Below, one piece after another: positions 13,751 to 50,971 of a stretch of DNA of 64,000 nucleotides; position 1 is the stretch's first letter, and every line of letters begins with the position of its first letter. This stretch comes from Dipteris shenzhenensis (taxonomy: Eukaryota): assembly GCA_047967505.1 (NCBI GenBank), contig CM106538.1. One strand, written 5' to 3'. The position numbers were made by a program, and so were the translations under genes. The notes under the pieces were generated by a model. It was not told the origin of the DNA, did not search any database, and was given only the letters and a program-made list of their open reading frames with translations.

Positions 13751-13844
13751 CGCTCGCACTTGGTGATGGCAATCATGATCCCATTCTTTCTTCCTAACGC
13801 TCGCACTTGGTGATGGCAATCATGATCCCATTCTTTCTTCCTAA
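13751..13844. repeat. 47-bp tandem duplication at the end of the STP fragment
   Basis: CGCTCGCACTTGGTGATGGCAATCATGATCCCATTCTTTCTTCCTAA x2. Confidence 0.9.
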
Positions 13845-19780: not shown

Positions 19781-21912
19781 CCATGTGGAAGGTATAATGC
19801 GTACATTTTTGCAATCCCTACTAGTGACTACGTATGAAAAATGGTGCACGTACTAACCAAATAGGCATGTGGACTTATCTATTGGGGATGAAACTTTGCA
19901 CAGCCCTTAGGCTAACCTAAATATACATCTTTGCAAGATTTGGTCTTTAACTGATTGGGTATGTGCCACGTGGAAGGTATAATATGTACATTTTTGCAAT
20001 CCTTACTAGTAACTACGTATGAAAAATGGTGAACATACTAACCAAATACGCATGTGGAATTATCTATTGGGGATGAAACTTTGCATTGCTCTTAGGCTAT
20101 CCTAGACCTACATCCATGCAAGATTTGGTTGCCAATCTATTTGGTATGTGCCATTGGAAGGTATAATGCGTACATTTTTGCAATCCCTACTAGTGAATAT
20201 GTATGAACAATGGCACACGTACTGACCAAATAGGCATGTGGACTTATCTGTTGGGGATGAAACTTTGCACGGCCCTTAGGCTACCCCAGATATACATCTT
20301 TGCAAGATTTTTTCTTCAATTGATTTGGTGTTTGCCACATGGAAGGTATAATGCGTACATTTTTACAATCCCTTCTAGTGACTACGTTTGAAAAATGGCG
20401 AACGTACTCACCAAATATGCATATGAACTTATTTGTTGGGAATGAAACTTTGCACAACCTTAGGCTACCTTAGACCTACATCCATGCAAGATTTGGTTGC
20501 CAATCAATTTTATATGTGCCGCGTGGAAGGTTTAATGTGTACATTTTTGCATGCACTCCCTACTAGTGACTACGTATGAAAAATGATGCATGTACTAACC
20601 AAATATGCATGTGGACTTATCTATTGGGGATGAAACTTTGCACCACTCTTAGGCTACTTTAGACATACATATCTATAATATTTGGTCTCCAACTGATTTG
20701 GTATGTGCCATGTGGAATAATGCGTACATTTTCGTAATCCCTACTAGTGACTACGTACGAAAGATGGTGAATGTACTAACCAAATACGCATGTGGACTTA
20801 TTTGTTGGGGATGAAACTTTACATGGCTCTTAGGCTACCCTAGACCTACATCCATGCAAGATTTGGTTGCCAATCTATTTGGTATATGCCGCATGGAAGG
20901 TATAATGCATATATTTTTACATGCGCTCCCTACTAGTGTCTATGTATGAAAAATGGCGAACGTACTAACCACCGATGCATGTGAACTTATCTGTTGGGCA
21001 TGAAACTTTGCACAGCTCTTAGGCTACCCTAGACCTACATCCATGCAAGATTTGGTTGCCAATCAATTTTGTATGTGCTACGTGGAAGGTATAATGCATA
21101 CATTTTTGCATGCACTCCCTACTAGTGACTACGTATGAAAAATGGCGCACATACTAACCAAATCTACATGTGGACTTATCTGTTGGGGATGAAACTTTGC
21201 ACGGCTCTTAGGCTACCCTATACATACATCCATGCAAGATTTGGTTGCCAATCGATTTTGTATGTGCCACGTGGAAGGTATAATGCATACATTTTTGCAA
21301 GCACTCACTACTAGTGACTACGTATGAAAAATGGTGAACATACTAACCAAATACACATGTGGACTTATCTATTGGGCATGAAACTTTGCACGGCTCTTAG
21401 GCTACCTTAGACATACATCCATTGAAGATTTGGTTGCCAATTGATCGCGTGGAAGGTATAATGTGTACATTTTTGCAAGCACTCACTACTAGTGACTACG
21501 TATGAAAAATAGCGAACATACTAACCAAATACACATGTGGACTTATCTGTTGGGCATGAAACTTTGCACAGCTCTTAGGCTACCCTAGAAATACGTCCAT
21601 GCAAGATTTGGTTGCCAATCGATTTGGTATGTGCCAGGTAAGGTATAATGCGTACATTTTTGCATGCACTCACAACTAGTGACTACTCATGAAAAATTAT
21701 ATACGTATTATATGATTTTGGACCAATTGTACAAAATCATGTATTAATGCTTGACACATGTTACTACCATTGAGCACCATTCCATGCTAAACATTGACAT
21801 TTTTTCTTAATCTATAATTTACAAAAATTATTGACAATATTAGTGTAATAATTGCAAGCATTGATATATATGAAATTCAATATGATATTCAAAATGATAA
21901 AGTTCATAGACG

Positions 21913-22619: not shown

Positions 22620-23700
22620 CCTTTGAAAAATAATATAAAAACTACGTTAAACTCTTGTTTTCTCTTTTTTTTTAATATATGATTTTTAAAAATAAACCAT
22701 ATACGTTTTTACAACTTCCCTAATTTAAGAAATATATAAAAACTACTTTAATCTCTTTTTTTAAATAAAAAAATAGATGATTTTGAAATAGAAAATATAT
22801 ACGCTTTGACATTTAATTTAAAACTTCACTAACTTAAAAAATAGTATAAAAACTACTTTAACTCTTGTTTTCTTTTTGTTTGATAGATGATTTTTAAAAA
22901 TAACATAAAAACTACTTTAATCTCTCTTTTTTTTTAAAAAGATGATTTTAAAATACAAAATATATGTGTTTTGACATTTAATTTAAAACTTCACTAACTT
23001 GAAAAATAAGATAAAAACTACTTTAAACTCTTGTTTTCTTTCTCTTGATAGATGATTTTTAAAAACAAAATTTAAACATTTTTATATTAAAAACTTCACT
23101 AATTTAAAAAATAACATAAAAACTACTTTAATCTCTCTTTTTTTTAATAGATGATTTTAAAAAATAAAATATATACATTTTGATATTTAAATAAAAACTT
23201 CACTAACTTGAAAAATAATATAAAAGCTACTTTAAACTCTTGTTTTCTTTTTTTTTAATAGATGATTTTTAAAAATAAAATTTAAACATTTTTATATTTA
23301 AATAAAAAATTCACTAATTTAAAAAATAACATAAAAACTACTTTAATCTCTTTTTTTTAAATAGATGATTTTAAAAAACAATATATATACATTTTGACAT
23401 TTTAAATAAAAACTTCACTAATTTAAAAGATAATATAAAAACTACTTTATTTATTTTTAAAAGATGATTTTTAAAAACAAAATTTAAACATTTTTATATT
23501 TAAATAAAAACTTGGTTAATTTGAAAAATAACATAAAAACTACTTTAATCTTTTTTTAAAAATAAATGATTAAATAAAATAAAATATATACATTTTGACA
23601 TTTAAATAAAAACTTCAGTAATTAAAAAAATAATTTAAAAAAACTTTAAAATGCATTAAAAGTTTTTAAATATTTTATAATTAAATTACATTTTCCTATA
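22620..23700. repeat. AT-rich tandem array, ~100-110-bp unit, ~10 copies with alternating subtypes
   Basis: AAAACTACTTTAA-like motif at ~22638, 22739, 22849, 22908, 23015, 23119, 23223, 23335, 23438, 23536; subtypes continue ..AATCTCT or ..AAACTCTTG. Confidence 0.9.
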
Positions 23701-24524: not shown

Positions 24525-26922
24525 TGTCACATTCCCCCGTGGGTGGTCCGAAAGTGGACACCCTTGTGCAATTGTCGCTCCTCCGATTAATAGAGATCAC
24601 GGCCTACAATGGAAGGCAACTTTGGGCCAATTTCTCCTTTGTCATGTTGCTTCATGTCTGTCTCTGTTCCTCCTCTTGTCTTGTAGTTATTACATCTCTT
24701 TGTGGTGGAGATGCTGGGCATCATGGAGTATGAGGAAACCAAACACTCTTCTCCTTCAATGAAGCAAGCCCCCATCCCTACCGATACCTTGGCAACTCTC
24801 CTCTATGAACTCATTCAATCGAACATGCAGGTCACTAACCTCACAGCATATCATAGTGCAAGACAATCAGTGAGTTTGGGACATGACTCCCAAGTGAGTT
24901 CTCAGGCACTCTAGACAAAGATGTGTACTTATGGTTGGGCCATTTCCATAATCTGGCTGAATATCACCATTGGAGCAACGTGCAAAAGATCGTGGAGATT
25001 AAACCTTCATTTCAAGGTTTAGCTGATGCTTGGTACCATCACAGCTAGAGGACAATGTGAAGGATTCTTGGCCACATCTCCATCACGCTTTAATGATGGC
25101 ATTTGGCAACACAGATATTATTAAGGATGCCCTGACTCAACTCAATTACTAGCAACAGCTTCCAGGCGAATCTGTCTTGCAATTCGGAGTTAAGCTTACC
25201 CACCTTCTCCTGCGGGTTGATCCTAACATGGTGGAGGACCTTAAGCTTTTTTTCTTATGGCCCAAATTGAAGTAGGACGTGTCCCAGTGCATGCAAGATC
25301 AAGGTCCTCGGACCCTAAGTAAAGCCCTTCTCATTGCTCAGTGCATTGAGTTCCCAAAGAATAAGCCAAGTGCTAAACTTCCACCTCTTCCTCCTTTGCT
25401 CCCAGCTCCATCGTCAATGTCTTTTCCTACCCCAATGGAGATTTATCATTTGGAAAACTCTACTCGCAGCTACTTTTAGCCTCACTTAGCAAACACCTGT
25501 GATTATCAAAGTAGACCAAAGCTCTCTGACTATGATGAACAAGGTAGACCTTGTTGCTTTAGATGCAACTGCTATGGATATGTCAAGAAGTACTATTGGT
25601 CATCTCAGTCCATGCAGAATGCCCAAGCATCCGCCAACCTTCTTGTCTCAAAAAAAGAGTTACTAGCAACCTCTTCTTGTTCTTATCGACTTGGGTAGCT
25701 CCATTACCTCGGTTCAGCAAGCACTGGTGCTTGATGCACAGATCCTCCTATTCTCGTTGCCTCACAACTAAATCAACTTCGATGACAATCTGGCCACTGT
25801 CGATTTGTCCAGGGTGCCCATCTTCACATAAACCTTGCTGGTTGTTCCCACTTAGTGCCAACAACTGTCCTTCCTCATCAAATTTTCCCTCTCACAATCA
25901 GATGAAATTGGTAAGCCGACCAAAAAGCAATCATCGACTTTCAACATCATTGTCTAAGGTTGCCTAATTCTCCCCCAGTCCCTTGGTCCTCTTTTCGTTC
26001 GAATGCCTCCTTGTTTGTTGCTACATCCATGATTCAAGATGACCTTCTCAGGCAGGCGGAAATCAAATGGATCCTCACTTTGTTGCCCCAGGCATTTGCC
26101 ACTGATGTATTGTCTACCACCTTGGTCTACTTCTATCATGAGATCCCCATAGGGGAAGCACGACCCAATCATGGTTGCACAACGTCACCACTCTAGTTGG
26201 GAGGTGGATATTCTTTACAGCCACATCGACACCATGCTCAAAGATAATGTGATGAGTCACTCCAAGAATCCATGGGTATCAGAACCACACTTGGTGAAAA
26301 AAACAGATGGCTCGTATCAACTTTGTGTGGATTTTCACTCCCTCAACAAAGTCACAACCAGAGACCAATATCCTCTTCCACAAAACGATGACATCCTCAA
26401 TTCTTTGGCTCATTCCAACTTTTTTAAAACCCTAGATCTAAAGTCTAGCTATTGGCAGACCTCAAGATTTCCACACTCCGTTCGGCCTTTACCAATTCAA
26501 CGTCATGCCGTTTGGATTAAATAACACCCCCGGCACATTCCAACATCTCATGAACCTCATCCTACATGATCTCATTCTTCAAGGCAAGGTCTTGGTGTTT
26601 CTCGATGATGTGTTGATCCATACAGCCACTTGGCTAGAGCACAAAGAGGTGCTGTGACAAGTCCTCAAATTGCTACATAGTTTTAATCATTACTTAAATG
26701 CTAATAAATGCCATTGGGTGCAAAGCAGTATTAAGTATTTAGGTTTCATCATGTCGAAAGATGGCATCCACCTTGATCCTCTCAAAGTCACCCGCAATAC
26801 ACAATTTCCCAGTCCCTACGAACGTCAAAGCTTTGCAACATTTCTTGGGTTTAATAGGATTCAGTTCTCGTCATGTCATTGATGATTTGGCCATCCTGTC
26901 AGCTCCTTCGCATCGTTTACTA
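24525..26922 (+). mobile_element. Ty3/Gypsy element G1, 5' part (putative short LTR ~24525-24694, tRNA-Ala PBS, decayed gag-PR-RT), interrupted by a Copia
   Basis: PBS TGGTGGAGATGCTGGGCAT (24703-24721) resembles the complement of the plant tRNA-Ala 3' end. RT motifs PW..LVKKTDGSYQLCVDF..LNKVT.RDQYPLP, LDLKSSYWQ, FLDDVLI. Confidence 0.8.
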
Positions 26923-29270
26923 TGTATTAAGAAAAACAAGAAGAGAGATATAGGAAGAAACCAAGAGGTAGCAATAGTCTCCTCCACAATCAGCTCATAT
27001 TCACCCCACACAGTACAATTGAACATACAATTGAACACTACTAAGGTCACACCCATACATAGTAGATAAGAACGAGTCAGTGTGACTCACTTTATTCACC
27101 TACTCACACAACAACAAGAACAATAACCGAGAGCTTGATTCCCAACACTCCCTCTCAAGCGCAAGTAGGGAGCATAACACCAAGTAGCTCTCTAAAGTAT
27201 GTAAACTTATCTCTACCCAATGACTTGGTAAAGATATCTGCAACCTAATCTTCAGTCTTCACATGTATGAGATCAATCTTCTTTGATAACACCATCTCTC
27301 TGATGAAATGGTAGTGTACCTCAATATGCTTAGCTCTAGCATGATAAATTGGATTACTTGCCAATTGTATACTACTCATGTTATCACAATAAAGTTTGAT
27401 TGGTTTTTCCACATGCAGTCCCAAATCCTGCAAAAGCCTCTGAAGCCAAGCAATCTCACATGTAGCCAATGCTGCACCTCTATACTTTGCTTCTATACTA
27501 GACAATGCCACTGTGGGGTGCTTTTTACTACTCCAACTCACCACTGCACTACCAAGGCTGAATGCATAACCACTGGTGGATCTCCTATCATAGGCACATC
27601 CTACCCAATCTGCATCTGTGTATCCAACTAATTCTATATCCTTTCCATACTCATAAAAGAGTCCATACTGATATGTTGCCTTGACATAGTGCATAATCCT
27701 CCTCATTGCATCTGAGTGAGGCTTCTGTGGCTTTTGCATAAACTGACTAATGAGTCCCATAGCATATATTAAATCAAGCCTGGTAATAGTCAGATAAATC
27801 AAGCTTCCAACCATCTGCCTATACATGGTAATGTCATCAATCTCAGCTCCAGAATCAACCATCATCTTCAAGTTTTGATCCAAGGGAATATCCATTGGTT
27901 TGCAATCCTTCATGCCAAACCTCTCCAGCATATTCAAGGAATACTGCCTCTGCATAAGCCAAATGCCATCAGGTGTTCTCAACACCTCTATGCCAAGAAA
28001 GAACTTCAAGTCCCCTAGATCCTTCATATCAAACTCCATTTTTAGCTTGCTCTTAATTTCAGCAATGCCATCATCATCACTATCAGTCAAAATTAGATCA
28101 TCAACATAAATCACAATCACAACATATCCAGCAATTGTCTTCTTTGTGAACAGTGAATGATCAGCTTTACCAACTACAAAACCAAGCTCCTATAGGTATC
28201 TACTGATCCTTTTATTCCATGCTCTAGGTGCTTGCTTCAGCCCATAGAGAAATTTCTTCAACCTACAAACATAGTTGGGATAGTCAAGGTGCACATAACC
28301 CTCGGGCTGAACCATATAGACTTCAACAAGTCACCATTTAGGAAAGCAATCTTGACATCCATTTGCTGCAATTTCCACCCATTTGTAGTAGCCAATGCTA
28401 TGACAGTTCTCACAATTGCCATCTTGGCAACAGGGCTAAAAGTTTCCTCATAATCTAGCCCAAATTATTGTGCATACCCTTTGGCAACCAGCCTTGCTTT
28501 AGACCTTTCCATTGATCCATCAGACTTGCATTTTACTTTGTAGACCCATTTGCAACCAATAGGATTCTTGCCTTCAGGCAACTCCACCAAATTCCAAGTC
28601 TGATTAGTGGCAAGAGCATCCATCTCCTCATCCATGGCATTCCACCAATGACCATGTTGCACAGCCTCACCAAAGATAGTTGGCTCAGTATGTCCCATAA
28701 CTTTTTGTCATATATGCAATAATGCCGAGTAGCATAACCACTATAAGTTAACCTATCAATAGGATACCTGACTCTCTGTGACCTTCTCACTGGAGTGCCT
28801 GACTCTCCTCATTCATGAGGAGGTATGTACCTACTTTCCTTAACTCCAGGTGTAGACATAGATGGTATACCCAACTCACTATCCAAATTGTCACTACATG
28901 ACGAATCATAGCCACAATTTGATGGCCCAGGGACATCATTTTCAGCTTGTGAAAGCACCTCAACAACCTTGTCTTTCCCTTTATCTCTCCCCCTCACTGA
29001 CATAGCTGTGTTAGTGGAATTGCATAACCTACTAGACCAAGGATTCACTGTAGTCAAACCAGTAGATGTAGGCCCAGATATGGATGTACTAATTTGCTGA
29101 TTTTTATCATATGCATGACTTGCAGATGCATCATTTGGAACAGCCACTTTCGGCTTGCCATACCAAGATTCCAGCTCATAAAAAACAACATCCCAACTCA
29201 CCATAGTCTTCTTGGTCGATGGGTTGTGGCATTTATAGCCCTTCCAGTTCTATGCATAGCCAATAAACAC
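26923..29270 (-). mobile_element. Ty1/Copia 3' half (3' LTR 26923-27147, RH, RT, integrase C-terminus), same lineage as the element at 51804; cut by LTR-X1
   Basis: PPT GCTTGAGAGGGAG then TGTTGGG on the minus strand; YVDDLIL, DADWVG, HIEVHYHFIRE; spacer motifs RRSQRVRYPIDRL and ELGIPS shared with 51804-57331. Confidence 0.92.
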
Positions 29271-30469
29271 TGTTATGGATAAATTTGTCTAAGGAAAAAG
29301 GCATTAATATGTGTGTGTGTTTGTATGTGTGGCAATAGTATAATAAAATATGGTGTGCATAGGGCCCAGGGTTGAGGTGGTAGGGCATGACCATGTGCCA
29401 CCCTTCCACGTAAGAGGACCTATAAGGTGTGATCCATGGTAGTAATATTATAAAATGTAAGGTGGCATGGATCCTCCATGTGCCACCCCTCCACCTAGGT
29501 TGCATCTAGTGAGATATGGCTCAAAGTCCATGGGAGAAGTAATAAAAGGATGCATTTATTGGGAGAGACCCTCTCTCTTGGCTATAAAAGGAGGGGGCTA
29601 TTCCTTGATGAGACATGCTCATTCTTGTAAAGCCACCTAGCTAGTACTTTGATTTCTCCCTTCCCTTCCTTTCAAAATAAAGCATGGTCCTCTTCCCTTG
29701 ATGTCTCCATCTTTACATTCCTCCTCCCATCATGTACACGCTTCTCTTCCCCCTCTCCCTTTCCCCTTGTGTCATAGTCTCCTTCTTCATTCCCTCCTCT
29801 TCTAATTCCTTTTCCCCTCCCATGATAACGTTTTGCCCTCACGTTCTCCTTTCCTCTATGGCCCTCAAGCATTGCCATGCTTAGCCTCTAGCCTCTGGTC
29901 CTGATTTCTTTTTCGGCTAATAGAAATGGAGTGGCTGCTGGGATCGAAATCTCCACGGCTAGTGGTATAAAATCTGTTACTTCTATGACTGGGTGCAGCA
30001 CTGCGGCCTCTTTCGTGTGCAGTTCTCTTCTTTTGCACCTCCAAACTGCATGCCTTCCCTATCTCTATGACTGCAAAACCACCTTGCTTCTGCGCTTCCA
30101 GTTCTCTTCTTTTGCACCTCCAAACTGCATGCCTTCCCTATCTCTATGACTGCAAAACCACCTTGCTTGCTTTTTGCTTGTGGTTCCCATGTGTATTCTG
30201 GCTAGTGAATCTTCTACTCGTACCGATTGCAGCTGCAGAACTGCAACATCTATGCTCCCATGCGTGCATCCACTATGTACACCCATGCGCATCGCAGACA
30301 GAGCGTGACATTTTTTTGGGCTCTCGCATCTTCTAGTCGCGGACTGCTATTCTGGGTTTCTGCAAAACTGTAACAGATCCCGCGCCCCCCTCTCTTCACT
30401 TCTCTTCTGGTTCTCCTCCTTCTCTTTCTCTTTCTCTTTCTCTTCTCCTTCTCCTCTCCTCTCTTTTTA

Positions 30470-31378: not shown

Positions 31379-31629
31379 ATGACATCTTGGATCCTTCAAT
31401 TTGATGGAGCTTACAAACCTTCGACCAAGGCTGTTGGCATGGGTGTGAAGCTCACTTCATTGGGTGGTGAGAAGTATTGTTATAGCAAGTCTGTCCCTGC
31501 AAGTACATGCAAACAAGCTGAGTACTTAGCACTCATTTTTGGGCTACAAAAGGCACAAGAGCATCACATCAAGCAACTTGAGGGGCAAGGAGATTCTCAA
31601 CTAGTGTGTGAACAAGTTAGTGGAAGGTG
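31379..31629 (+). pseudogene. Archaeal-type RNase HI (aRH), truncated by the inversion
   Basis: WILQFDGA..TCKQAEYLALIFGL..QGDSQLV.EQVSG. Confidence 0.9.
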
Positions 31630-34324
31630 AGGTCTTGAAAGGGAAGAGAATGATGGTCCCTCTTGGTGGCTGCATTGAGTTTCTTATAGTCAATGCAGAC
31701 CCGCCACTTGTTGTTTTTCTTTGGGGTGACACCACTTACCTTCTCAAGAATGAGGTCTTGAAAGGGAAGAGAATGATGGTCCCTCTTGGTGGCTGCATTG
31801 AGTTTCTTATAGTCAATGCAGACCCGCCAGTTGTTGTTTTTCTTTGGGGTGACACCACTGGTGAATCCCATTCAATATTGTGAACCGGAACAATAAACCA
31901 AGCTTCTACAAGCTTTTGCAACTCCGAGCGCAAAGCATCAGTCTATAGGGGCTAATCTCTGATACTTTTGAGCCACAGGCTTCGCATCAGGCTTCAGCTC
32001 TATCTTGTGCTCTATGGCAGTCACATGGCGAAGGTGGTGGTAGCTAGTTGCAAAGAGGTCAGGGAAATCCTTGAACATTTCTACGAACTCGTCTTTCTCA
32101 CTTGGAGTGAGGTCTAGGGAAAGCATAGATTCAAGCTGTTGAGGACTAGTAGTTACCTTTTATACAGGTGGCGGGGTCAGAGACACCCCCATCATGTAAA
32201 CTTTCTCCTATGAGAAACACCCCCCCCCCCCCCATTCGATTCTTCCATTGATTCAGACACCGAGGATGAGAGAGTATCACTGTCTTTCTCCTCTTCTTCT
32301 TCTGGTTTTGTGGCACCTGGTTGCACCGGGATCTTCTCCTTAGAAGCACCAAAAGACATGTGTCTTGTCTTCCAATAGCTGACTGCATCACTCTTTCTCG
32401 ACCATGATCTCCCGAGTATGGCTGGGTAACTCCTACCTATATCTTCAATGTCCACTACATAGAAATTGACGGTGGTGGTCGACCCATTGACAGATGGGCA
32501 AATCCTCAATGACTCCTAAGGTGGCGAGTTGTCGACCATCTTCTACCTTGATTCGAGTGGAGGAACACCTTGTACATTTCAAATTCAATTTCTTCATGAT
32601 TCGGGGCACCATGATATTACATGCAGCTCCCCCATCAACACACACATTTTTGACATGACAATTATCTATGATGACATCGACTGTATGTGGGTGCCGATCA
32701 ATTTCTTCAGAGATAGAAGATACAGGCTCTCTTACCTTTCCCTTTTTCTTGTTCCTCCTTGTTGAGAGCCCTTGCTGTAGCTCACGTCTCACCTTAGGGC
32801 TTAATGCTATTAGTTGAGGGAGTGTGATGCTCAAAGAACGATGAGCAAGGTCCTGAATGACCGAATAGTCTTCTTGCCCCGAGCCGATGGGAAAATCCGA
32901 GGGTGACCACTTACTCCTGCGAGATCTTTTAGTCTTCTCTATTGGTGGGTCTACCATCTCAGCATCTGAGGGCTCTGAGAAGGACACCTTCTTCCTAGGG
33001 TGGCCTGGTCCACAGTTTGGAGAGGGGTCCGAGGTGGTTCTTTTCTCGAGGTCAAGGATCTCTACATCAAAATCCTCAGTGCCAGATTTACTTAGACAAT
33101 TCACCATTGGAATATTGGGACATTCTATGCAATAATGACCTTTCTAGTGGCATCGTAGCATACAACATTAGCTCGGCGGTCTCTTGGAGGGCGGTTGGCT
33201 TGATTTCTGATGCCCATCATCTCAAGCCAAAGATCATTCAGGGCCTTGGCTAGATCATTGACTCCGAGTTCTTTTGCAGGAGGGGCCTCTTTAGCTAGAG
33301 GGGCCGAGGGAGTAGAAAGGAGGGGGGCTCGTGGGCAAGGCTGGGGAAATCTTTGAGGCAAAGGGTCATGAGATGTATACTTTCTGTGATTGTTACTCTG
33401 GGTTTTATCAAATCAGAATTGCCGAAGAAGATGTTCTTAAAACCACATTTGCCACACCCTGGGGGACAATTGCATTCAAAGTATTGCCATTTGGCCTCAT
33501 TAATGCTCCTGCTACCTTTCAAATATTTATGCAGATGGTGTTTGCTCCTTATTTGGGGGATTTCTTGGAGGTGTTTTTAGATGATTTTTGTATATTCTCG
33601 TCATGTAAGGAGCACGTCATGAAGGTTAGGTTAACCTTCCAAAGGGTCAATGATGCAAATGGCAATCTCAACCCAGAGAAATGCACCATTGGAGCCACTC
33701 AAGGGAGGTTACTGGGACATATTGTCTCATCCAAGGGTGTCAAGCCTCTGACCCCGAGAAGGTAGAAGCCATCCTCAAGCTCTCCCCGCCAACAACCAAA
33801 CATTAGGTATGCTCATTTGTCAATCTAGCAGGATACTATCGCCACTTCATTGATCAATATGCTGCTTTGACACGACCCATGACTATGCTATTGAAAGATG
33901 GGGTTGATTTCTCTTAGGATGAGGATTGTGATCATGGGATTACACAAATCAAGAATGCTCTAGCTTCGGAACCCATTCTATTCAATCCAAATTGGTCAAA
34001 GACTTTCTATATCAATCTTGGGTTTGGTGAGCACACTCTGGCACGTATTCTTCTTTAGCAAGGGGAGGATCGATTCATGTATCCTGTTCAATTTACTTCT
34101 CGACAATTGCTCGACACTGAACGATGCTACTCAGAGGCTGACAAGCATGCTTTGTCTTTGGTTTTATACATTGAGAAATTTAAGCATTATGTGGTTGGAA
34201 AGTCCATTATAATCTCTAGCAATGGTCTTGCAAAGTAGGCTCTTCAATCACCAAATCCCATGGGCCGATTGGCCAAATGGTTGGCAGTTCTACAAGAATA
34301 TGATTTTTCTTTCAAAATTGTAAG

Positions 34325-35978
34325 ATTTCGCATAGATCGTCGAACCTATCTTCCATAATTTCTCTGAGACTACTCCATGTTTCTCTAATTCCTCTCAGAG
34401 GGAGCTTCTCCATACCTTGAGCTATCCTGTGCTGAAATCTGAGCAGTAATGGCTGCATATTCAAGGTGAAAATAGAGAAAAACAAGTCAAAATTGAAGAA
34501 GCGAGCTATGGCGATCTGATGTAGATTTGCACTCCTCCTCCTCAATGGTCCTTCTATGGTATATGAGCTTTCTTTTGCTTCAAAAAGCCCCTTCTTGTTT
34601 GCTTTGGAGAGTGAGATACAAGCCCTCCAAGTTCAGGCCTTTGCTTTTGACAGTTTTGATAAGGTTTTGAAAGTGATGCTACATTAGATGCTACTTTAGC
34701 ATTTCTGAGGTTTTGAAGTTTTGAAAAGCATTAGTACAACTGTGGCTACAACTTTCTTTTAAGTTGCTATACCTGGTTTTGATTGGAAAGCTTTCATTTA
34801 ACCACCTCTGTGAAGCATGTAAGTGAAAGCATCATTGATTGAAATTTGATCACAAGTCTTTGCTACATTAAATGCTTATATTTTGAAGCTTTTTAGTTAT
34901 TTTTCTAGCCTTATAAGAGAGAAGGCACTGCCTAATACCTGGGTTAGACCCTCTCATGGCTACCATATTGAATATATATAAGTTCAATGGTAAGGGTTTC
35001 CACACATGGTAGATGAAGGTGAAATTTGCATTGATGAGGGAAAACCTCTGGGGACTTGTCAAACTAGCTTCAACTTCTTCTTCAACAGCCTCCAATGCTG
35101 GAGAATCCTCAGCTCCGACATGCCCAACAAGGGATCTTGCTAAAGAGGAGAAAGCATATGGTATCATTGCTCTTGCTTTAGGAGATGATTATATTCATCA
35201 CATCTCTGACTTAGAGTCTCCTTCAGAAGCTTGGCAGAAGCTTGACATGATTTTTGGTGTTAGCTCTGACATCTCAAAATTATCACTTAAAATTTCTTTC
35301 TTTGAATTGAAGATGGTTAGTGGCACTCCTTTGGTTGCCCATGTCAATTACATGCGGAGTCTCATGACTCAACTTGCTTCTATCAATTCTCCTATCACTA
35401 CAGATGATGCTATGGTAGTGTTGCTCAAGAGTATGCCCGAAGATTATGATCATGTTGTTACCACTTTGAAAAATCTTCCTAATCCTAATCTTGAAGGTTT
35501 ATCTCTGCTCTTCAAGAAGAAGAAAGGCACATGGAACTCTGGAGAGGCAATGACATAGCCTCTGCCATAAAAATCTAGAAGGGCAAGTTTTCACCTTGCA
35601 ACCATTGTGGGAAGACAAATCACCTCTCAAAAGACTGCTTCAAGATCAATCCATGCAAACACTGTGGCAAAAACAATCATCATGAAAAGTTTTGTAGAGC
35701 CAAAAAGGCAGCAACTTCAAAGACAGAAAATGCCAATCTACTTTCAGTTGATGTGCCTCCACAAGATGAGGCATCCTTTGAAGATTATGCTTTTTGAATC
35801 ATCTCTATTGTGCTCCAAATCTCTCTTTTATTGAGTCAAGGTACTCAGCTTGGTCCTCCAAAATGAATGAAATAAACTATTGTGTGTTTTGTAAACACCT
35901 CTGGTCACCATATGATGTAGGCCATGTGTATGTGTTTTTTGCTCCATGGTACCTCCTGCAGACATTGTGTGCATGTAC
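34325..35978 (+). mobile_element. Gag-only Copia-type element Z (partial, no LTR seen); gag pseudogene 34956-35797
   Basis: KFNGKGFHTW*MKVKF..LALGDDYIHHI..; two CCHC knuckles; ends EDYAF*; close homolog of gag 49557-50348. Confidence 0.8.
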
Positions 35979-36312
35979 TGTTATGGATAAAATTGTCTAA
36001 GGAAAAAGGCATTAATATGTGTGTGTGTTTGTATATGTGGTAATAGTATAATAAAATATGGTGTGCATAGGGCCCAGGGTTGAGGTGGCGGGGCATGACC
36101 ATGTGCCACCCTTCCATGTAAGAGGACCCATAAGGTGTGTTGTACATAATCCATGATAGTAATATTATAAAATGCAAGGTGGCATGGCTCCTCCATGTGC
36201 CACCCCTCCACGTAGGCTGCATTTAGTGAGATATGGCTCAAAGTCCATGGGAGAAGCAATATAAAATAGGTGGAGATAGATATTATATTGAGTTATTCCC
36301 TCCATATGGGAT

Positions 36313-38909
36313 TGAAGGCACAGGAACGGAATGAAAATGGAAATGAAATGACAATACAAGTGCAAAGCAATGATAACCAAGAGTACTCACATGTAGGCCA
36401 AGAGAGCTTGATGTTGATTGATGTGACAAAACTAGAAAGTACAATGCCTTTATAGAATAGGCACACACACTCTAGCTGTCACATGTATATGGGATAAGTC
36501 CCATAGTGACACATGGCACTCTAGGATATAAAGTAGTCTAGTACTATTCTAGAACACTAGAAAACACTCACTTTGGCTTCATGTTCCAACACCCCCCCAT
36601 GAAGGCAAGGTGAGAGATTACTAGAATGGAGCCAAGAACAAGACATGACATGATGAATCTACTAATCTGTACATCCCAAATAGCTCAGAGGCTCAAAAGA
36701 GAAGCATGGCTACTTGACCCAACAAAACAGTCTAGGGAGTGCACCAACATCCTGGAAGTCGGCCAGGCCTGATAACAAAATCCATCAATGCCAATAATAG
36801 GGCTCCCATAGTACATCCCCCCCTGGCTTCATAACATGAATGGTAGGAAGCCACACACAAATAAAGTAAAAGAGAATAACATCATTTTAGGAGGACTATC
36901 CAAGGCTGAGAACCTTTATTGACTCAACACACATGATTTATTTACATTCATTTTAGGGGGACTCCCAAGGCAGAGTACCTTCGACACACTCAAAAAACAA
37001 AGTCAAGATCATCTGGTGCATAGACCTCTTCATCTAGAGAGAGATCTTGAGCAGTGAGAGCATGAATTGGAGTAGAGATGTCTGCATCGTCTTCGTCTTC
37101 CTTGGATATAGTCCCAACCAAGTTGGCATGGTCTTTAGATTGTTGTTTGGCCAGCTTCTGGAAGCAACAAACTTTGGTGTGACCAAGCTTCCCACAGTTA
37201 AGTGCACTTGATAGGTTTGAAGTTACCTTTTCCTTTAGGAAACGTCCCTTTAGAAAATAGTGCATTGGCGTCAGGAGTATCAATATGCCTTCTTTCATGA
37301 TCAAGAAGCATAGCAACCATGTCATGGTAGCTCATGCTTGCCACTCTTAATGCTGGTATAATCTCCCGATACTTAGGAATGTCTTAAATGCTTGTGAGGA
37401 GCACCGCGACCTGGTCATCATCCCCAACTGGGGCCTTCAACGCAGCAAGTTGAGTGATGAGAGACTCCATATGATTCAGATGGGCGAGAAGAGAGTCCTC
37501 ATGCTTCATCTGGAGTTTGAAGAATTCTTGGCGGAGAAAGACCTTAGAATTGATTACCTTATTGCCGAAAAGACCTTCAAACTTCTCCCATAATTCTTGA
37601 GCAGTGGAATCAAAGTCAAGATGATGAATAACTTCATCACCCAAACCCAAACCAATGAGAGAAAGGGCTTTGTCGTTTAAATTCTCCCAGTGTAGAATTT
37701 TCTTCTCATCCGATTGTGGCTTTTTATCCTTGCCACAAACCACATTCCACACCCCGTCTTTCATAAGGATAAGACGCAGCTTTGTTTGCCATGTCAGAAA
37801 GTTCTTACCCGTGAACTTTTCAATAAAGGCACTTGACTTCGAGGACTCCATGGCAATCAACTTGCAAGTAGCAAATTCAGAGGTGGAACCTTGTGATCAT
37901 TAATATCTCAAGTAGGAAATGAAGCAGGGAGCCACGAGCTAGATCCAGGAGTAGCCACGAATTAGAGCAAGATAAGACATCACGGGCTGTTGGAGAAATG
38001 TGTGGGGCAGCATGTGGGGCAGCTCCGAATCAGAGAATCATGGGCAAAATTGGATGACAGCCAGCTTCAAGTAGGCGAAAGCTACGTAGGAGAGGGAGCA
38101 ACTTCAGAAATTCGTGGGCAGCTCCTTCAGCATCACGAACAGATCAGCATCAATGCAGGACAGCAACGTGCGGCAGCTCTTCCATTGTCTCAAACAAAAA
38201 AATGCTGGGCAGAGTGGCGGGCTATTCACAGTGGCAATGGGCAGAACTGAAGCGGCCTTTGGAGCAAAAAAATGGGCAGCCTCAGGAGGTCTCATACAGC
38301 AGCAAATAGCACGGGTAGATCTACAGCAGGAATGTCAAAGAAGAGGTTCACGGGCAGCATCAAATAATGCAGGCAGATCTGTAGTAGGAACAAGAGCGTG
38401 GCAGCCTAAACAGGAGCAGAATCTGGGCTTCAACACGGGCAGATTGATGGGCAGTAGGAGCAATTCGTAGAGCAAAAATCGGGGCAGCAGCTGGAGATGG
38501 CCTTGTCTTCAAGATGTCGGGAGAGCATACTCTCTTGCACTTAGAGAAAGAGAGAGAGGGCATGGCTTCTCTTTTTGGCCTCCCTCTCCTCAATCTCTAG
38601 GAGCGAAAGAGCAGTGGCTCTGATACCACATGAAGGCACAGGAACGGAATGAAAATGGAAATGAAATGACAATACAAGTGCAAAGCAATGATAACCAAGA
38701 GTACTCACATGTAGGCCAAGAGAGCTTGATGTTGATTGATGTGACAAAACTAGAAAGTACAATGCCTTTATAGAATAGGCACACACACTCTAGGTGTCAC
38801 ATGTATATGGGATAAGTCCCATAGTGACACATGGCACTCTAGGATATAAAGTAGCCTAGTACTATTCTAGAACACTAGAAAACACTCACTTTGGCTTCAT
38901 GTTCCAACA
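36313..38909 (-). mobile_element. Gag-only LTR element Y (TR-GAG-like); 279-bp LTRs at 36313-36591 and 38631-38909
   Basis: TSD GGGAT on both sides (empty site visible in the 44460 LTR); iMet PBS; G-rich PPT; gag EKFTGKNFLTWQ..CGKLGHTKVCC..DLDFVF*, frameshifted; no pol; ~2 LTR mismatches seen. Confidence 0.95.
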
Positions 38910-40037
38910 GGGATAGGCCCATGTGGGGGAGGTATAGAAGGACTAAGAGAACTAGTTAAATAATGGGGAAAGTAGGATGAGGTGGCAAGATTCCTTGTGC
39001 CAACCCTCCACTTGTCCTCCTAGAGGTTTGAACATATTATAAAATTGGAAAGAGACCAAGGGAGTATCATAGACTTGAGATATGGGGCTTGATTTATGTG
39101 GAAAATTGAGGCAAAGGGTTGTCGCACACAATTGAAAGTGCGTAACCACCTAGCCCATGTGGGAGACTTTTCCACACACACCATGCATGTGGGAGGATAC
39201 ATTAATGTGGAGAGACCCCCTCTTTTGGCTATAAAAGGAAGGGGCAATTCCTTGATGAGACACGCTCATTCTTGTAAAGCCACCTAGCTAGTATTTTGAT
39301 ATTTCCCTCTCATCCCTTCTTTCAAATAAAGTATGGTTCTCTTCCCTTGATGTCTACATCTCAACATTCCTCCTCCTATCATGTACATGCTTCTCTTCCC
39401 CCTCTCCCTTTCCCCTTGTGTCATAGTCTCCCTTTTCCTTCCCTCCACTTCTAATTCCTTTTTCACCCCTATGACATCCCTTCGCCCTCTTGATCTCCTT
39501 TTCTCTAGGCCTTTGAGTGTCGCCATACTTAGCCTCTAGCCTCTGGTCTCGATTACTTTTTCAGCTAAAAGTTTTGGTGTGGCTACTGGGATACGAATCT
39601 CCACGGCTAGTGGCGAATCTTCTACTCGTACGGGTTACATCTACAAAACTATACCATCTATGCTCTTTCTAAGCTACTGCACGTGCATTCGATTCGTGCG
39701 TCTCCTGTGCGACAGTTCTCTGGACTGCTGCGATTTCTGGTTGCGGACAGTTTTCTGCGTTCACCCGCACGACAGTTCTCTGGACTGCTGCGACTTCTGG
39801 TTGCGGACAGTTTTCAACGCTCACCCGCACGCTCACCCGCACGACAGTTCTCTGGACTGCTGTGACTTCTGGTTGCGGATAGTTTTCTGTGCACACCTGC
39901 ACGATAGTTCTCTGGACTACTGCGACCTCTGGTCGCGGACTGTTTTCTGAGCCCCTGCAAAAGAGTAACAGCAGATCCCGCGCCCCCCTAACTCTTCTCT
40001 TTCTCTTCTCCTTCTCCTCTCCTCTCCTCTCTTTTTA

Positions 40038-40108
40038 TTAAAGAGTAGGATTGGAACCCAAGACCTCCCCCTTCACAAAAGAAAGTCTTATCATTGGGCC
40101 AACAAGTT
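40038..40108 (-). ncRNA. tRNA-like Pol III cassette, antisense in the leader of X copy 2
   Basis: rc TTGGCCCAATGATAAG..TTTTGTGAAGGGGG..GGGTTCCAATCCT. Confidence 0.6.
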
Positions 40109-40314
40109 GGAAGTGGTAAAAATGTAATGATTTTTGTTCATATATTGAAATCGCAGGAGCTGTAACTCTCTAACCATAGGGAGTTTGCTCTTGCTGTAAA
40201 AAGCAAAAATACTTCATTTTATGTGCTCTATCCACATCTCTTGCTAGATCGCTGATTCAGAACTTCTCCAAGCTCACTTCACGGATGCACGCCTCATGAG
40301 AAGGGTGGACATTT

Positions 40315-40725
40315 ATGTCACTTCTCGACGCGTTTAAGGAATTGATGCCTGTTCCTCCACACCTTACGGCTACCAATGCACGAGATGTCTTCCTTGATCT
40401 TCATGTCGACCTTCAACGGCTGATTGTCTAGTGCATTATTGAATGAGATGACGGGTGGAATGATACACCGTGGATGATTCATGGTGAAGAACTACTGATA
40501 CGCTGGGAGGATTTTGATTTTACTTCTACTCATTGTGCGGTGATCGAACTACTTGCTGCTTCAGAGGTAATTAAAACGGTGTCCTTCATTGAAGGGTGGG
40601 ATGCTCCCCAAGCTTGGGGGGAGATTTGGCACATCTGCCTTTTGATTCCTGTGGAAAAGCTCGTTCTGAATGGTTTATTCACAATCTCATTACAAAGGTT
40701 TCTAGGCCTCGGCTATGGTTGGTAA
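40315..40725 (+). pseudogene. X leader ORF1 (copy 2), 136 codons, unknown function
   Basis: MSLLDAFKEL..DDGWNDTPWMIHGEELLIRWEDFDF..EGWDAPQAWGEIWH..GLGYGW*; its internal stops are sense codons in copy 1. Confidence 0.7.
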
Positions 40726-40949
40726 TGTTTCGACCAAGGAATCCATTTGTACCTAATCAGCCTTTTGTGCCTCATTTCGAGCTTCAAATTGTAATTCTTT
40801 TTGGGCTTAAGATAAACTATCAATAAAGGATTGCAAGTTTATTTGGTGCTGAACGTTTGGCTGAAGTGTTGAATTCTCCCCACCCTCTCCTCCTACCTAT
40901 CTTGGACTATCGAGAAACTTGGGATGTCCGAATTTTAGTCTTGGTGTGA
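40725..40949 (+). pseudogene. X leader ORF2, 74 codons, unknown function; starts in TAATG and ends in TGATG
   Basis: MFRPRNPFVPNQPFVPHFELQ..RIASLFGAERLAEVLNSPHP..WDVRILVLV*; TAA at 40824 is CAA in copy 1, which instead has a 2-nt deletion. Confidence 0.6.
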
Positions 40950-41413
40950 TGACATCTTGGATTCTTCAATTTGATGGAGCTTACAAACCTTCGACCAAGG
41001 CGGCTCGCGTGGGTGTGAAGCTCATTTCACTGGGTGGTGAGGAGTATTGTTACAGCAAGTCTTCACCTGCAAGTACTTGCAATCAAGCTGAGTACTCGGG
41101 GCTCATTTTTGGGCTACAAAAGGCACAAGAACATCATGCCAAGAAATTGGAGGTGCAAGGAGATTCTCAACTAGTGTGTGAACAAGTTAGTGGAAGGTGG
41201 AAGGTGCGGAGCAAAGGCTTGGTTCCACGATATCAACAAGCCTTGGAACTTTGCAACCAATTTGAAGAGGTAAAAATTCAGCATATCCCTCGAACTCGAA
41301 ATCTTGTTGCTGATTTCTTGGCACGTGAAGCTTGTACTTCAATCACGCATGACGCGAGTGGAAGCGCCACCCCAACAAAGCCACAAGCCACGAAGGAGGG
41401 TGATCATTTGTAA
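40949..41413 (+). CDS. Stand-alone archaeal-type ribonuclease HI (aRH) upstream of gag, 154 aa, open
   Basis: All four acidic catalytic motifs: FDGA, NQAEY, GDSQLV, HIPRTRNLVADFLA. Confidence 0.9.
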   Translation: MTSWILQFDGAYKPSTKAARVGVKLISLGGEEYCYSKSSPASTCNQAEYSGLIFGLQKAQEHHAKKLEVQGDSQLVCEQVSGRWKVRSKGLVPRYQQALELCNQFEEVKIQHIPRTRNLVADFLAREACTSITHDASGSATPTKPQATKEGDHL

Positions 41414-41549
41414 GGAATGCAAAGGTTGTGGCCATCATGAAACTAAGTGTTGGGCATACTTGATACGAGTTCACCGACTTCGGCAGATCATCAGGAGGGT
41501 TCTCAAGGACATTGCTCAAAAGAAGGATGCCAGACCGCACACCCCTTGA
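41349..41549 (+). CDS. Small basic CCHC zinc-knuckle ORF (66 aa) overlapping the aRH 3' end
   Basis: CKECKGCGHHETKC fits C-X2-C-X4-H-X4-C; Arg/Lys-rich flanks. Confidence 0.55.
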   Translation: MTRVEAPPQQSHKPRRRVIICKECKGCGHHETKCWAYLIRVHRLRQIIRRVLKDIAQKKDARPHTP

Positions 41550-41828
41550 AGAAATTGTTTGCCTTGATGAACAACCTCATTCAACGCCGCGCCTCTAACC
41601 CTCGCTTGTAATGATCGATGTGATATCATGAGGGTTGGTCCTTTTAAGATTGTCTATGTGCTATTCTATGCTGAAGATTCTTCTCGTGTAATATTTCACA
41701 CTACACCCTAGTCACACCCTACCCTGCCTATGTGTGCTTTTTGGATGTATCTTCACCCGATTTTCAGTTCAAGCTTCCTCTTACTATTGTTCGTCCATAG
41801 ATAAGCCCCTCTTTTCCATCTTCTAAGC

Positions 41829-44450
41829 ATGGCTAACATTCCCGTGTTTTGTGGACAGGTAGAAGAAAATCCAAATGAGTATCTTGTGGCCTTCAAGCGC
41901 CATTGTGTTTCTCTCAACTTTCTTACTGAAGGCAGATGGCTATTGGTTCTTCCCACATTTCTAGAGGGTTTGGCTCAAGTGTGGTATGAGAAGCAAACCG
42001 AAGACGTTCGCCAAAGCTGGCCAAGGTTGACAGCAGCTATGATTGAGTATTTCGGCAAAGAAGAGGAGCCGGAGAATGTGTACCTGCAGGTGGCAGACTT
42101 GAAGCAGTCAGAAGGTGAGATGGCACGTTGATATGTGGATCGAGCGGCCGTGCTCCTAGACCATTTGATTGCCACACAGGAGGACAATGCCGGATTTCGT
42201 GCCGGAATGACTCAGCATGTGCTGGGCTACCTTGTAGCAGGAGCGAGTGATGAATTCTGCCTCAAGCTTAAATGGGAGAATCCAGAAACTATGGTGCTAG
42301 CGCATGAGACTGCTCAAAAGTTTGATAAAGTTCAGTCTGACCCCGCTTCAAAGAAGATGATTGTCCCTCCGCATCCCCCTCAATTCTTGCAACAACAACC
42401 TGGGGGGTCTGACTTAGGGGCATACCCCCACCCCTCATCACGGATGTATCCACCGCCTCCACCTCAGATGTATGGTCCTCCCTTAGATGCTTACCCTCAA
42501 CAAGGTGGATATCCTCATCCTCTGCCTCGAAGATTTCCCCAGCCTCGCCCACGAGCCCCCCTCCTCTCTACTCCCATGGCCCCTCCAACTAAAGAGGCCC
42601 CCTCTGCAACAGAACCTAGAGTCAATGACCTAGCCAAGGCCCTAAATGACCTTTGGCTTGAGATGGTGGGCAACAGAAATCAAGCCAACCGCCCTCCAAG
42701 AGATCGTGCTAATGTTGTATGCTATGAGTGCCACCAGAAGGGTCATTATTGCACAGAATGCCCCAATATTCCAAGGGTGAATCTTCTAAGTGAGTCGGGC
42801 ACTGAGGATTCTGATGTAGAGATCCTTGACCTCGGGAAAAGAAGTCGTGCCACCTCGGACCCCTCTCCATACCGGGCTGCCCCAGGAAGAAGGTGTCCTT
42901 CTCAGAGCCCTCAGATGCTGAGATGGCAGACCCACCAACAGAGAAGACTAAAAGATCTCGCAGGAGTAAGTGGTCACCCTCGGATTTTCCCATCGGCTTA
43001 GGGCAAGAGGACTATTCGGTCGTTCAGGACCTTGCTCATCGGTCTTTGAGCATCACACTCCCTCAAATAATAGCATTAAGCCCTAAGGTGAGACGTGACC
43101 TACAGCAAGGTCTCTCAACAAGGAAGAGCAAGAAAAAGGGAAAGGTACGAGAGGTATCTTTAATCTCTAAAGAAATTGATCGGCATCTGCATACAGTAGA
43201 TGTCATCATAGATAATTGCCGTGTCAAAAATGTGTGTGTTGATGGGGGAGCTGCATGTAATATCATGGTGCCCCGAATCATGAAGAAATTGAATTTGAAA
43301 TGTACAAGGCGTTCCTCCACTCGAATCAAGGTAGCAGATGGTCGACGACTCTCCACCATGGGAGTCATTGAGGATTTGCCCATCACTGTCAATGGGTTGA
43401 CCACCACTGTCAATTTCTATGTAGTGGACATTGAAGATACAGGCCAAAGTTACCCAGCCATACTTGGGAGACCATGGTTGAGAAAAAGTGATGCAGTCAG
43501 CTATTGGAAGACAGGACACATGTCTTTTGGTGCTTCGAAGGAGAAGATCCCAGTGCAACCTGGTGCCATGGAACTGGAAGAAGAAGAGGAGCATGAAAGT
43601 GATACTCTCTCATCCTCAGTGTCTGAGTCCATGGAAGAATCAGACGGGGGGGAGGAATTCTCAGAGGAGGAAGTTTACATGATGGGGGTGTCTCCGACCC
43701 TGACACCTACAGAAAAGATAACAGCTAGTCCTCAACAGCTCGAATCAATGCTTTCTCCAGACCTCACTCCAGGTGAGAAAGATGAGTTTCTTGAAATGTT
43801 CAAAGATTTCCCTGACCTCTTTGCAACTAGCTACCACCACCTTCGCCATGTGACTGCCATAGAGCACAAGATAGAGCTGAAGCCTGATGCAAAGCCTGTG
43901 GCTTAGATCAGTTCACAATACTGAATGGGTTTCACCAGTGGTAGTCATCCCAAAGAAAAACAAGTGGCGGGTCTGCATCAACTATAAGAAACTCAATGCT
44001 GCCACCAAGAGGGATCATCATCCCCTGCCCTTCATTCTTGAGAAGGTAAGTGGTCATGAGATGTATACTTTCTGTGATGGTTACTCTGGGTTTTATCAAA
44101 TCAGAATTGCCGAGGAAGATGTGCTTAAAACCACATTTGCCACACCCTGGGGGACATTTGCATTCAAAGTAATGCCATTTGGCCTCACCAATGCTCTTGC
44201 CACCTTTCAAAGATTTATGCAGATGGTGTTTGCTCCTTATTTGGGGGATTTCTTGGAGGTGTTTTTAGATGATTTTTGTATATTCTCATCATGTAAGGAG
44301 CACATCATGAAGGTTAGATTGGCCTTCCAAAGGGTCCATGATGCAAATGGCAGTCTCAACCCTGAGAAATGCACCATTGGAGCCACTCAAGGGAGGTTAT
44401 TGGGACATGTTGTCTCATCCGAGGGCATCAAGCCTGACCCCGAGAAGGTA
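41829..44450 (+). pseudogene. Gypsy gag-protease-RT of X copy 2 (stop at 42129, frameshift near 42880, deletion near 43907)
   Basis: ORFs 41829, 42135, 42893 and 43887 give gag, zinc knuckle, aspartic protease and RT in order. Confidence 0.92.
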
Positions 44451-45220
44451 GGGGGGAACTGTTATGGATAAAATTGTCTAAGGAAAAAGGCATTAATATG
44501 TGTGTGTGTTTGTATATGTGGCAATAGTATAATAAAATATGGTGTGCATAGGGCCCAGGGTTGAGGTGGCAGGGCATGACCATGTGCCACCCTTCCATGT
44601 AAGAGGACCCATAAGGTGTGTTGTACATAATCCATGATAGTAATATTATAAAATGCAAGGTGGCATGGCTCCTCCATGTGCCACCCCTCCACCTAGGCTG
44701 CATTTAGTGAGATATGGCTCAAAGTCCATGGGAGAAGCAATATAAAATAGGTGAAGATAGATATTATATTGAGTTATTCCCTCCATATGGGATAGGCCCA
44801 TGTGGGGGAGGTATAGAAGGACCAAGAGAACTAGTTAAATAATGGGGAAAGTAGGATGAGGTGGCAAGATTCCTTGTGCCAACCCTCCACTTGTCCTCCT
44901 AGAGGTTTGAACATATTATAAAATTGGAAAGAGACCAAGGGAGTATCATAGACTTGAGATATGGGGCTTGATTTATGTGGAAAATTGAGGCAAAGGGTTG
45001 TCGCACACAATTGAGAGTGCGTAACCACCTAGCCCACATGGGAGACTTTTCCACACACACCATGCTTGTGGGAGGATATATTAATGTGGAGAGACCCCCT
45101 CTTTTGGCTATAAAAGGAAGGGGAAATTCCTTGATGAGACATGCTCATTCTTGTAAAGCCACCTAGCTAGTATTTTGATATTTTCCTCTCATCCCTTCTT
45201 TCAAATAAAGTATGGTTCTC

Positions 45221-50969: not shown

Positions 50970-50971
<2 letters not shown>
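48408..50971 (+). mobile_element. Gag-only LTR element W (TR-GAG-like); LTRs 48408-48672 and 50705-50971; inserted in a (GA)n tract
   Basis: TG..CA, near-identical LTRs; PBS TGGTATCAGAGCC at 48675; G-run PPT; (GA)n on both flanks; no pol. Confidence 0.95.
49557..50348 (+). CDS. gag: Intact Copia-type Gag with two CCHC knuckles, 263 aa
   Basis: DKFNGQGFHTWQMKIK, UBN2-like core, CKHCGKNNHDEKNC and CGICGKNGHSESNC, ends DKDFCF*. Confidence 0.9.
   Translation: MNTHVAIDKFNGQGFHTWQMKIKFHLMKYNLWNLVKGTSSSKEREKEPQCLEQAFAIIALGLGDNYLHHIANLEDPAEAWAVLDHLFGASSKHSKLSLKIEFFELELTSGAPLDAHINKMRSLMNQLASVDSPVIEDDSMAVLLKSMPKEYDNLVITLKYGPNPSFEGIISALQEEERKKEKQKDEGELALATKFKRMNFKACKHCGKNNHDEKNCFHIKPCGICGKNGHSESNCFSKKNSANMVEDTSDERAYMVDDKDFCF

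Follow-up and report, generated by a model that had tools for sequence, protein, structure and literature searches.

Plant retrotransposons of the Tat type, within the Ty3/gypsy group of long terminal repeat (LTR) elements, are described as carrying an archaeal-type ribonuclease H (RNase H; termed aRNH, here aRH) besides their native RNase H (termed gRNH, here native RH), the catalytic core of which is degenerate except for its last Asp (Ustyantsev et al., 2015, PMC4408406). According to the structures surveyed by Biryukov and Ustyantsev (2023, PMC10508981), the native RH is degraded in every aRH-bearing Tat structure, whatever the position of the aRH. One such layout, structure #4, is reported from four mosses (in Tat B) and from Selaginella tamariscina (in Tat C) (PMC10508981; PMC13468544), and was named 'pre-capsid' by Prokopeva et al. 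(2026, PMC13468544). In this study, a 64,000-nt stretch of DNA (the window) was analyzed that holds two copies, copy 1 and copy 2, of a Ty3/gypsy LTR retrotransposon family designated X. Family X is probably a Tat-type element of the structure #4 (pre-capsid) layout, in which the native RH would be catalytically dead and RNase H activity would be supplied in trans by an aRH encoded upstream.

The combination of a dead native RH with a stand-alone aRH ahead of gag is an instance of a published arrangement and of a published rule, and no new kind of system. Structure #4 and X alike have a native RH with a degraded catalytic core beside the reverse transcriptase (RT), and an aRH of archaeal type; no difference was found among the features tested, X having been compared with the published description, under which it may be a family of its own or a published representative. 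Structure #1, described with the order RT, native RH, aRH and integrase (INT) from flowering plants, ferns and hornworts (PMC4408406), likewise joins a degenerate RH tether to an active archaeal-type aRH, but with the aRH placed behind the tether in the same Pol chain and acting in cis, whereas in X it is a separate gene ahead of gag.

Outside Tat, the RTs of Moloney murine leukaemia virus (MMLV) and human immunodeficiency virus type 1 (HIV-1) resemble X in having, after the thumb, an RNase H-fold domain without catalytic residues and, in addition, a second, acquired RNase H, which in the retroviruses supplies the activity; the structural model of the X region described below matched the thumb and connection of MMLV RT, and HIV p51 (Foldseek). 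The retroviruses differ from X in that their arrangement is of convergent origin and their RNase H is covalently linked. The retroviral enzyme is also described as being of the fungal/metazoan type, with His where aRH has Arg (PMC4408406). Ty3 RT/RNase H (4ol8, 7q5b), the closest solved relative by sequence (3e-13), has the same arrangement of thumb and RH as X, but its catalytic D-E-D(-D) is preserved and a further RNase H is absent.

Fold and catalytic positions of the native RH

Pfam and PDB matches identify the segment 33732-34322 (+) of copy 1 as coding for a thumb followed by an RNase H-like domain, both from a pol of the Ty3/gypsy type. The query used for its analysis, P0001, is a 206-residue read-through of 33732-34349 (+) in one frame, with X at in-frame stops; the translation has four such stops, every one TAG. 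P0001 matched PF17919 RT_RNaseH_2 (1.1e-18, profile 3-100 of 100) and PF17917 RT_RNaseH (1.8e-14, profile 3-105 of 105, P0001 residues 89-190), both above the curated cut-offs. Searched against PDB with phmmer, it aligned colinearly, over query residues 10-195, with Ty3 RT (4ol8_A, 3e-13) and Ty3 Gag-Pol (7q5b_A, 1.1e-11). An AlphaFold2 model was obtained from a 27-row alignment (mean predicted local distance difference test score, pLDDT, 82.2), and its top Foldseek matches were the thumb and RH/connection parts of cauliflower mosaic virus (CaMV) RT (8r0s, 2.6e-12), of MMLV RT, of Ty3 RT (4ol8_B, 1.0e-09), of foamy-virus RT and of HIV-1 p51. Because the Pfam and PDB matches, the colinearity and the model with its Foldseek matches all point the same way, the RH fold is real.

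The catalytic positions were read from a HMMER alignment to wild-type Ty3 (7q5b) and from a MAFFT alignment of 140 RH regions, comprising P0001 and 139 of 157 BLAST hits. Hits spanning the query from residue 60 or earlier to residue 185 or later were kept, together with six named close relatives, and 18 hits were dropped. The MAFFT alignment was used instead of a pairwise BLAST reading, in which the second Asp column wavered by one position. In the alignments to Ty3 and to the 140 rows, the first catalytic Asp is Gly in the window copy (GGG, 34020-34022), the catalytic Glu is Asp (GAC, 34140-34142) and the second catalytic Asp is Asn (AAT, 34221-34223). Across the 140 rows, the first Asp column holds D in 132, G in 5, R in 1, S in 1 and a gap in 1; the Glu column, E in 121, D in 10, H in 3, K in 3 and R in 2; and the second Asp column, D in 131, N in 7, Y in 1 and a gap in 1. 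Asp at these RNase H positions is needed for two-metal catalysis. The fourth catalytic Asp of the copy 1 RH is unreadable, because RH similarity stops near 34322.

In the HMMER alignment, the Asp of Ty3 D-A-S is paired with the Gly of G-F-G, the first Glu of E-L-E (E-K-E in most homologues) with the Asp of D-K-H, and T-D-H with S-N-G; whichever register is adopted, the segment I-I-I-S-S-N-G contains no acidic residue. An earlier, sequence-only reading of the window had proposed a colinear RH fold in which the DAS, ExE and TDH motifs read GFG, DKH and SSN. The fold was borne out by Pfam, by the alignment to Ty3 in PDB and by AlphaFold2/Foldseek, and GFG and DKH were read in the same way here, but SSN was one residue out of register, the counterpart of Ty3 TDH being SNG.

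Conservation of the loss among relatives

Relatives of the native RH were collected from protein libraries (ENA/Logan records), on contigs other than that of the window. They form a cluster of eight open reading frames (ORFs; P0152-P0159, 48-198 aa) with 59-70% identity to the window copy, to which P0048 (66% identity) is added; those used in the alignment are stop-free ORFs of 116-198 aa. The family is represented by seven rows of the 140-row alignment (P0001, P0155, P0152, P0153, P0159, P0154 and P0048). At the first Asp position five of these have G and one has R, with one missing, and at the second Asp position six have N, again with one missing; Asp is thus found in 0/6 informative rows at either position. 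The Glu position holds E in 6/7 rows, and D solely in the window copy. P0158, which lies outside the 140-row alignment, has G at the first position and K at the second (Glu). Neighbouring substitutions are also common to the relatives, namely F and G for A and S (G-F-G for D-A-S) and H for the second E of E-K-E. Between P0001 and P0155, 65/95 residues are identical in the RH part and 59/83 in the thumb part, a similar degree of conservation.

Because stop-free relatives share it, the loss of both Asp is older than the split of the subfamilies, and because the RH is as conserved as the thumb, the native RH has remained under constraint. Judged from the aligned relatives, the loss of the two catalytic Asp is a trait of the family and not the decay of one copy, and since both metal-binding Asp are lost across the family, the native RH is very probably catalytically dead. 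Younger copies with D-E-D were sought among the stop-free relatives and were not found. The claim of the sequence-only reading that the pol RH of family X has lost its catalytic residues is thereby narrowed: the two Asp are gone family-wide, but the Glu is kept in most relatives and its change to Asp is specific to the window copy. The caveat that had been attached to it, of a single decayed copy bearing this region, holds inside the window, where tblastn with the RH query matched only its own locus and no second RH region was found; the relatives from the protein libraries extend the observation.

Further searches yielded few additional relatives. With the RH region as query, 0/420 candidates among longer proteins reached 1e-10, and among proteins of similar length one cluster alone was recovered (P0152). 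A representative search gave 36986 matches at E<=0.001; among the 150 listed there was one close relative (P0048, 66%), the others listed being generic Ty3/gypsy sequences of <=39% identity. Scans of metagenome contigs with the RH and aRH alignments returned 203 and 45 pattern matches, respectively, with 0 confirmed relatives.

A stand-alone aRH ahead of gag

The aRH ORF of copy 2 (Table 1) matched Pfam RVT_3 (3.7e-25) and RNase_H (7e-07). Its PDB matches were archaeal-type RNases HI (3hst, 1.8e-17; 4e19, 7.7e-15; 2ehg, 4.3e-12), namely the Rv2228c N-domain, Halobacterium RNase HI and S. tokodaii RNase HI. With these enzymes the aRH lines up at D, E, D and R...D, and the P-R before the last Asp is present. 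Relatives at 80-81% identity were found in two clusters (P0160 and P0161, with 25 and 8 members); these are 154-aa ORFs with identical start and stop. All of 5/5 rows have D9, E48 and D72, and D124 is found in 3/3 full-length rows.

In both copies the aRH ORF sits between the 5' LTR and gag, upstream of the gag/protease (PR)/RT block of that copy; in copy 1 its 3' part was lost at an inversion breakpoint. A hidden Markov model (HMM) of the family aRH, run over all six frames of the window, found only these two upstream loci (next best, E=1.5). Because PR abuts RT, and RT runs gaplessly into the thumb and RH, no aRH lies between PR and RT, nor between RT and RH. Compared between copy 1 and copy 2, the ratio of nonsynonymous to synonymous substitution rates (dN/dS) was 0.50 for aRH (one-sided Fisher p=0.06) and 0.34 for the PR region (p=3e-6); the gag C-terminus and RT each gave 0.40.

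A short open frame at 41274-41549 (+), which is in frame with gag and begins within the 3' part of the copy 2 aRH, codes for a perfect CX2CX4HX4C zinc knuckle. A simple fusion of aRH and knuckle by way of this frame was considered unlikely and was rejected, the aRH stop being conserved in relatives.

Supply of RNase H activity and its alternatives

Pieced together from the two copies, the gene order of X is 5' LTR, leader, aRH, gag, protease, RT and native RH; the Ty3/gypsy order within the LTRs is read from copy 2 for PR-RT and from copy 1 for RT-thumb-RH. In this layout the native RH is still joined to RT and folded, and it would act as a tether or, like a connection domain, hold the substrate. 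The aRH protein would be translated separately and enter the virus-like particle, where it would act on the RT-tether and cut the RNA strand of the RNA/DNA hybrid during reverse transcription. We infer this action in trans from sequence. That the decay of the RH reflects outsourcing to the upstream aRH, as had been suggested from the sequence alone, is supported by the loss of Asp in independent relatives, by the conservation of an intact aRH and by the published Tat structure #4. More tentatively, the dead native RH might be a docking site for the free 154-residue aRH, in which case X would have, inside the particle, a counterpart of the retroviral RT-tether-RNase H that is split in two and joined non-covalently; we regard such docking as possible but rather doubtful.

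Several observations weigh against supply in trans by the upstream aRH, or against placing X in Tat. The RH of copy 1 ends at about 34322, which puts the fourth Asp, the integrase and any downstream aRH outside view, and the contigs of the RH relatives are <=2109 bp, with the pol downstream of RH outside view there too. The RH relatives (P0152 cluster) may or may not come from elements with the upstream aRH. The putative Tat placement is drawn from gene layout and from features of aRH and RH. Selection on aRH between the two copies is marginal (p=0.06), and the 25 ATG triplets in the 1607-nt leader before the aRH start argue against simple scanning translation from the full-length RNA. Canonical TG...CA ends of the X LTRs were not found. 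No initiator methionine tRNA (tRNA-iMet) primer-binding site lies beside the X LTRs; each of the window's 5 exact matches is part of a different LTR element from X.

An improbable alternative, though the best of those weighed, is that a second, active aRH follows the native RH inside pol, as in Tat structure #1 or #5, and acts in cis, the upstream ORF being an extra. Copy 1 lacks the pol past 34322, and copy 2 has undergone deletion there; in the published survey, structure #1 is the commonest Tat layout and a two-aRH layout occurs in hornworts (PMC10508981), all of which would leave room for such an enzyme. Against it, the family aRH HMM detected nothing in the window besides the two upstream loci, the published drawing of structure #4 shows one solo aRH (PMC13468544), and although decay would be expected of an upstream copy that was redundant, the relatives show no variation in the catalytic residues of the upstream aRH.

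Slightly less probable again is that a host RNase H supplies the activity, the upstream aRH having another role or remaining unpackaged. Elements without an RNase H of their own can rely on that of the host, and RNase H2 is reported to promote retrotransposition of LINE-1 (long interspersed nuclear element 1; PMC6068448). The active site of aRH, however, is strictly conserved. It also counts against a host enzyme that reverse transcription of LTR elements occurs inside a capsid-like particle. Moreover, in the lineages compared in PMC10508981, Tat Z1 and Z2, which have no aRH, have an intact native RH, whereas the RH is degraded wherever aRH is present, so that loss of the native RH is tied to the presence of aRH.

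It is very unlikely that the loss of catalytic residues followed insertion and is confined to this dead copy, the active family having a normal D-E-D-D. The four TAG stops and one frameshift of the window copy would suit such decay, and the Glu-to-Asp change is really unique to that copy, most relatives keeping Glu. Stop-free relatives at 59-70% identity nevertheless share the Gly (one Arg), the Asn and the neighbouring substitutions, and the RH part is as well conserved as the thumb. Least credible of all is that the aRH ORF is foreign to the element, a host gene or LINE fragment adjoining by chance: RVT_3-type RNase H domains are described in plant non-LTR elements and host genes (PMC4408406), but both copies have the same order and a homologous flanking leader, the ORF is enclosed in copy 2 by two LTRs that are 98-99% identical, and its relatives are multi-copy with identical ORF limits.

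Structure of the two copies

The copies were delimited by self-blastn of the window and by tblastn (Table 1). The three LTRs (U1, U2 and U3) have one left boundary and three different flanks. Within U1, 29269-29547 is 91.7% identical to 35977-36264 and 92.7% identical to 44458-44745, and 29547-29692 matches 45073-45220. Copy 1 has a leader and aRH start as in copy 2, followed by an inverted block, after which RT and RH lie on the plus strand. The inverted block is 84.6-89.5% identical to 42519-44054 of copy 2 (blastn); positions 41199-42519 of copy 2 have no counterpart in copy 1, about 1.3 kb having been lost (the aRH 3' end and the gag 5' part). The breakpoints, near 31629 and 33356-33364, show short purine-rich microhomology, and 123 bp are duplicated in tandem at 31628-31859 (Tandem Repeats Finder, TRF). 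A frameshift near 33740 links the RT palm frame to the thumb frame. The stops in the thumb and RH are at 33804-33806, 33915-33917, 34056-34058 and 34236-34238, where relatives have Q, W, Q and Q; by this comparison the four TAG are single transitions, typical of decay, as would be expected from deamination of methylated cytosines. With these four stops, the frameshift, the inversion and the truncation behind the RH, copy 1 is a relic.

In copy 2, U2 and U3 are 98.8% and 97.9% identical over their two parts; a continuation of the LTR beyond 45220 was sought and none was found. The gag has one in-frame stop (42129-42131). In a protein-cluster search, the PR ORF gave a best score of 0.87, to generic retropepsin clusters, which did not narrow the lineage. 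The coding sequence of RT ends at a purine-rich stretch, which the 3' LTR follows at once (44440-44460). Because RT breaks off at this stretch, copy 2 is a deletion derivative without the RT C-terminus, RH and INT; the deletion looks to have run from a polypurine-like site inside RT to the true polypurine tract, and the remaining element would be non-autonomous, its LTRs still being 98-99% identical. Integrase is visible in neither copy.

The element nested in the 5' LTR of copy 2, at 36313-38909 (-), is a 2.6-kb gag-only LTR element of the Copia type. Its two LTRs of 279 bp are 99.3% identical, and 5 bp of target, GGGAT, are duplicated. An exact tRNA-iMet primer-binding site lies at 38617-38628, and Retrotran_gag_2 is matched at 37387-37896.

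Table 1. Coordinates, strand and supporting evidence for the parts of the two family X copies in the window.
Feature	Position	Strand	Evidence and remarks
Copy 1 5' LTR (U1), internal deletion	29269..29692	+	self-blastn
Copy 1 aRH, start codon and first ~84 codons	31379..31629	+	RVT_3 2e-11, profile 2-79 of 123; tblastn/HMM; breakpoint sequences
Copy 1 inverted block: gag C-terminus with CCHC knuckle, protease, RT N-terminus	31617..33364	-	inverted blastn, ORFs
Copy 1 RT palm	33316..33765	+	Pfam RVT_1 9.4e-22, profile 62-205 of 205
Copy 1 RT thumb/linker, two TAG stops	33732..33995	+	translation; aligned to Ty3 275-360
Copy 1 native RNase H-like domain, two TAG stops	33996..34322	+	Pfam PF17917, Ty3 alignment, 140-row alignment, model and fold search
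Copy 2 5' LTR (U2)	35977-36312 + 38910-39341	+	split by nested element 36313-38909
Copy 2 leader from LTR to aRH, 1607 nt	39342..40948	+	homologous to copy 1 leader; 60-bp tandem repeats 39710-39949 (TRF); 25 ATG
Copy 2 aRH ORF, 154 codons and stop, catalytic D-E-D-D intact	40949..41413	+	Pfam, PDB, relatives
Copy 2 gag: capsid-like region and CCHC knuckle	41805..43001	+	ORFs; Retrotrans_gag 6.5e-4, below curated cut-off
Copy 2 protease ORF	42830..43906	+	gag-asp_proteas 8.4e-05, Asp_protease_2 1.3e-4, both below curated cut-offs
Copy 2 RT, directly after PR, ends after DPEKV	43881..44451	+	RVT_1 1.2e-23; junction sequence
Copy 2 3' LTR (U3)	44458..45220	+	self-blastn

Other features of the window

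The window is eukaryotic DNA, probably from a land plant, and is packed with nested LTR retrotransposons; Pfam domains typical of plants occur in the Copia elements around family X. One of the Copia elements, at 51804-57331, is nearly intact and has 353-bp LTRs (98.9% identical), an exact tRNA-iMet primer-binding site at 52157-52168 and two long ORFs, 52634-55168 (gag, knuckle, protease and integrase) and 55092-56726 (RVT_2, 1.3e-79). In a small LTR element at 48408-50971, the LTRs are 265 bp long and 98.5% identical; its tRNA-iMet primer-binding site is at 48675-48686, and the ORF at 49554-50345 codes for a gag of the Copia type. At 26469-26768 (+) lies part of another Ty3/gypsy RT, which shares 36% identity with the RT of X (tblastn). 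A satellite-like tandem array at 19781-21697 consists of 10.3 copies of a 189-bp unit (83% matches), to which shorter blocks at 7984-8393 and 14426-14699 are related, and a separate AT-rich array with units of ~104-111 bp lies at 22892-23649. A probable host gene exon, of a sugar transporter of the major facilitator superfamily (Sugar_tr, 8.1e-21), is found at 13110-13763 (+).

Implications for family X

Family X provides a clean, independently verified case of the rule that in Tat elements with an archaeal-type aRH the native RH loses catalysis, wherever the new gene sits. If its host lies outside the mosses and Selaginella, which is possible, the known range of structure #4 would be wider. 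With its many stop-free aRH and RT-RH ORFs, the family would be suitable for asking how a separately encoded RNase H reaches the reverse-transcription complex, and if docking of the aRH on the dead native RH were true, it would be a natural system in which to separate the role of the tether from that of the nuclease.

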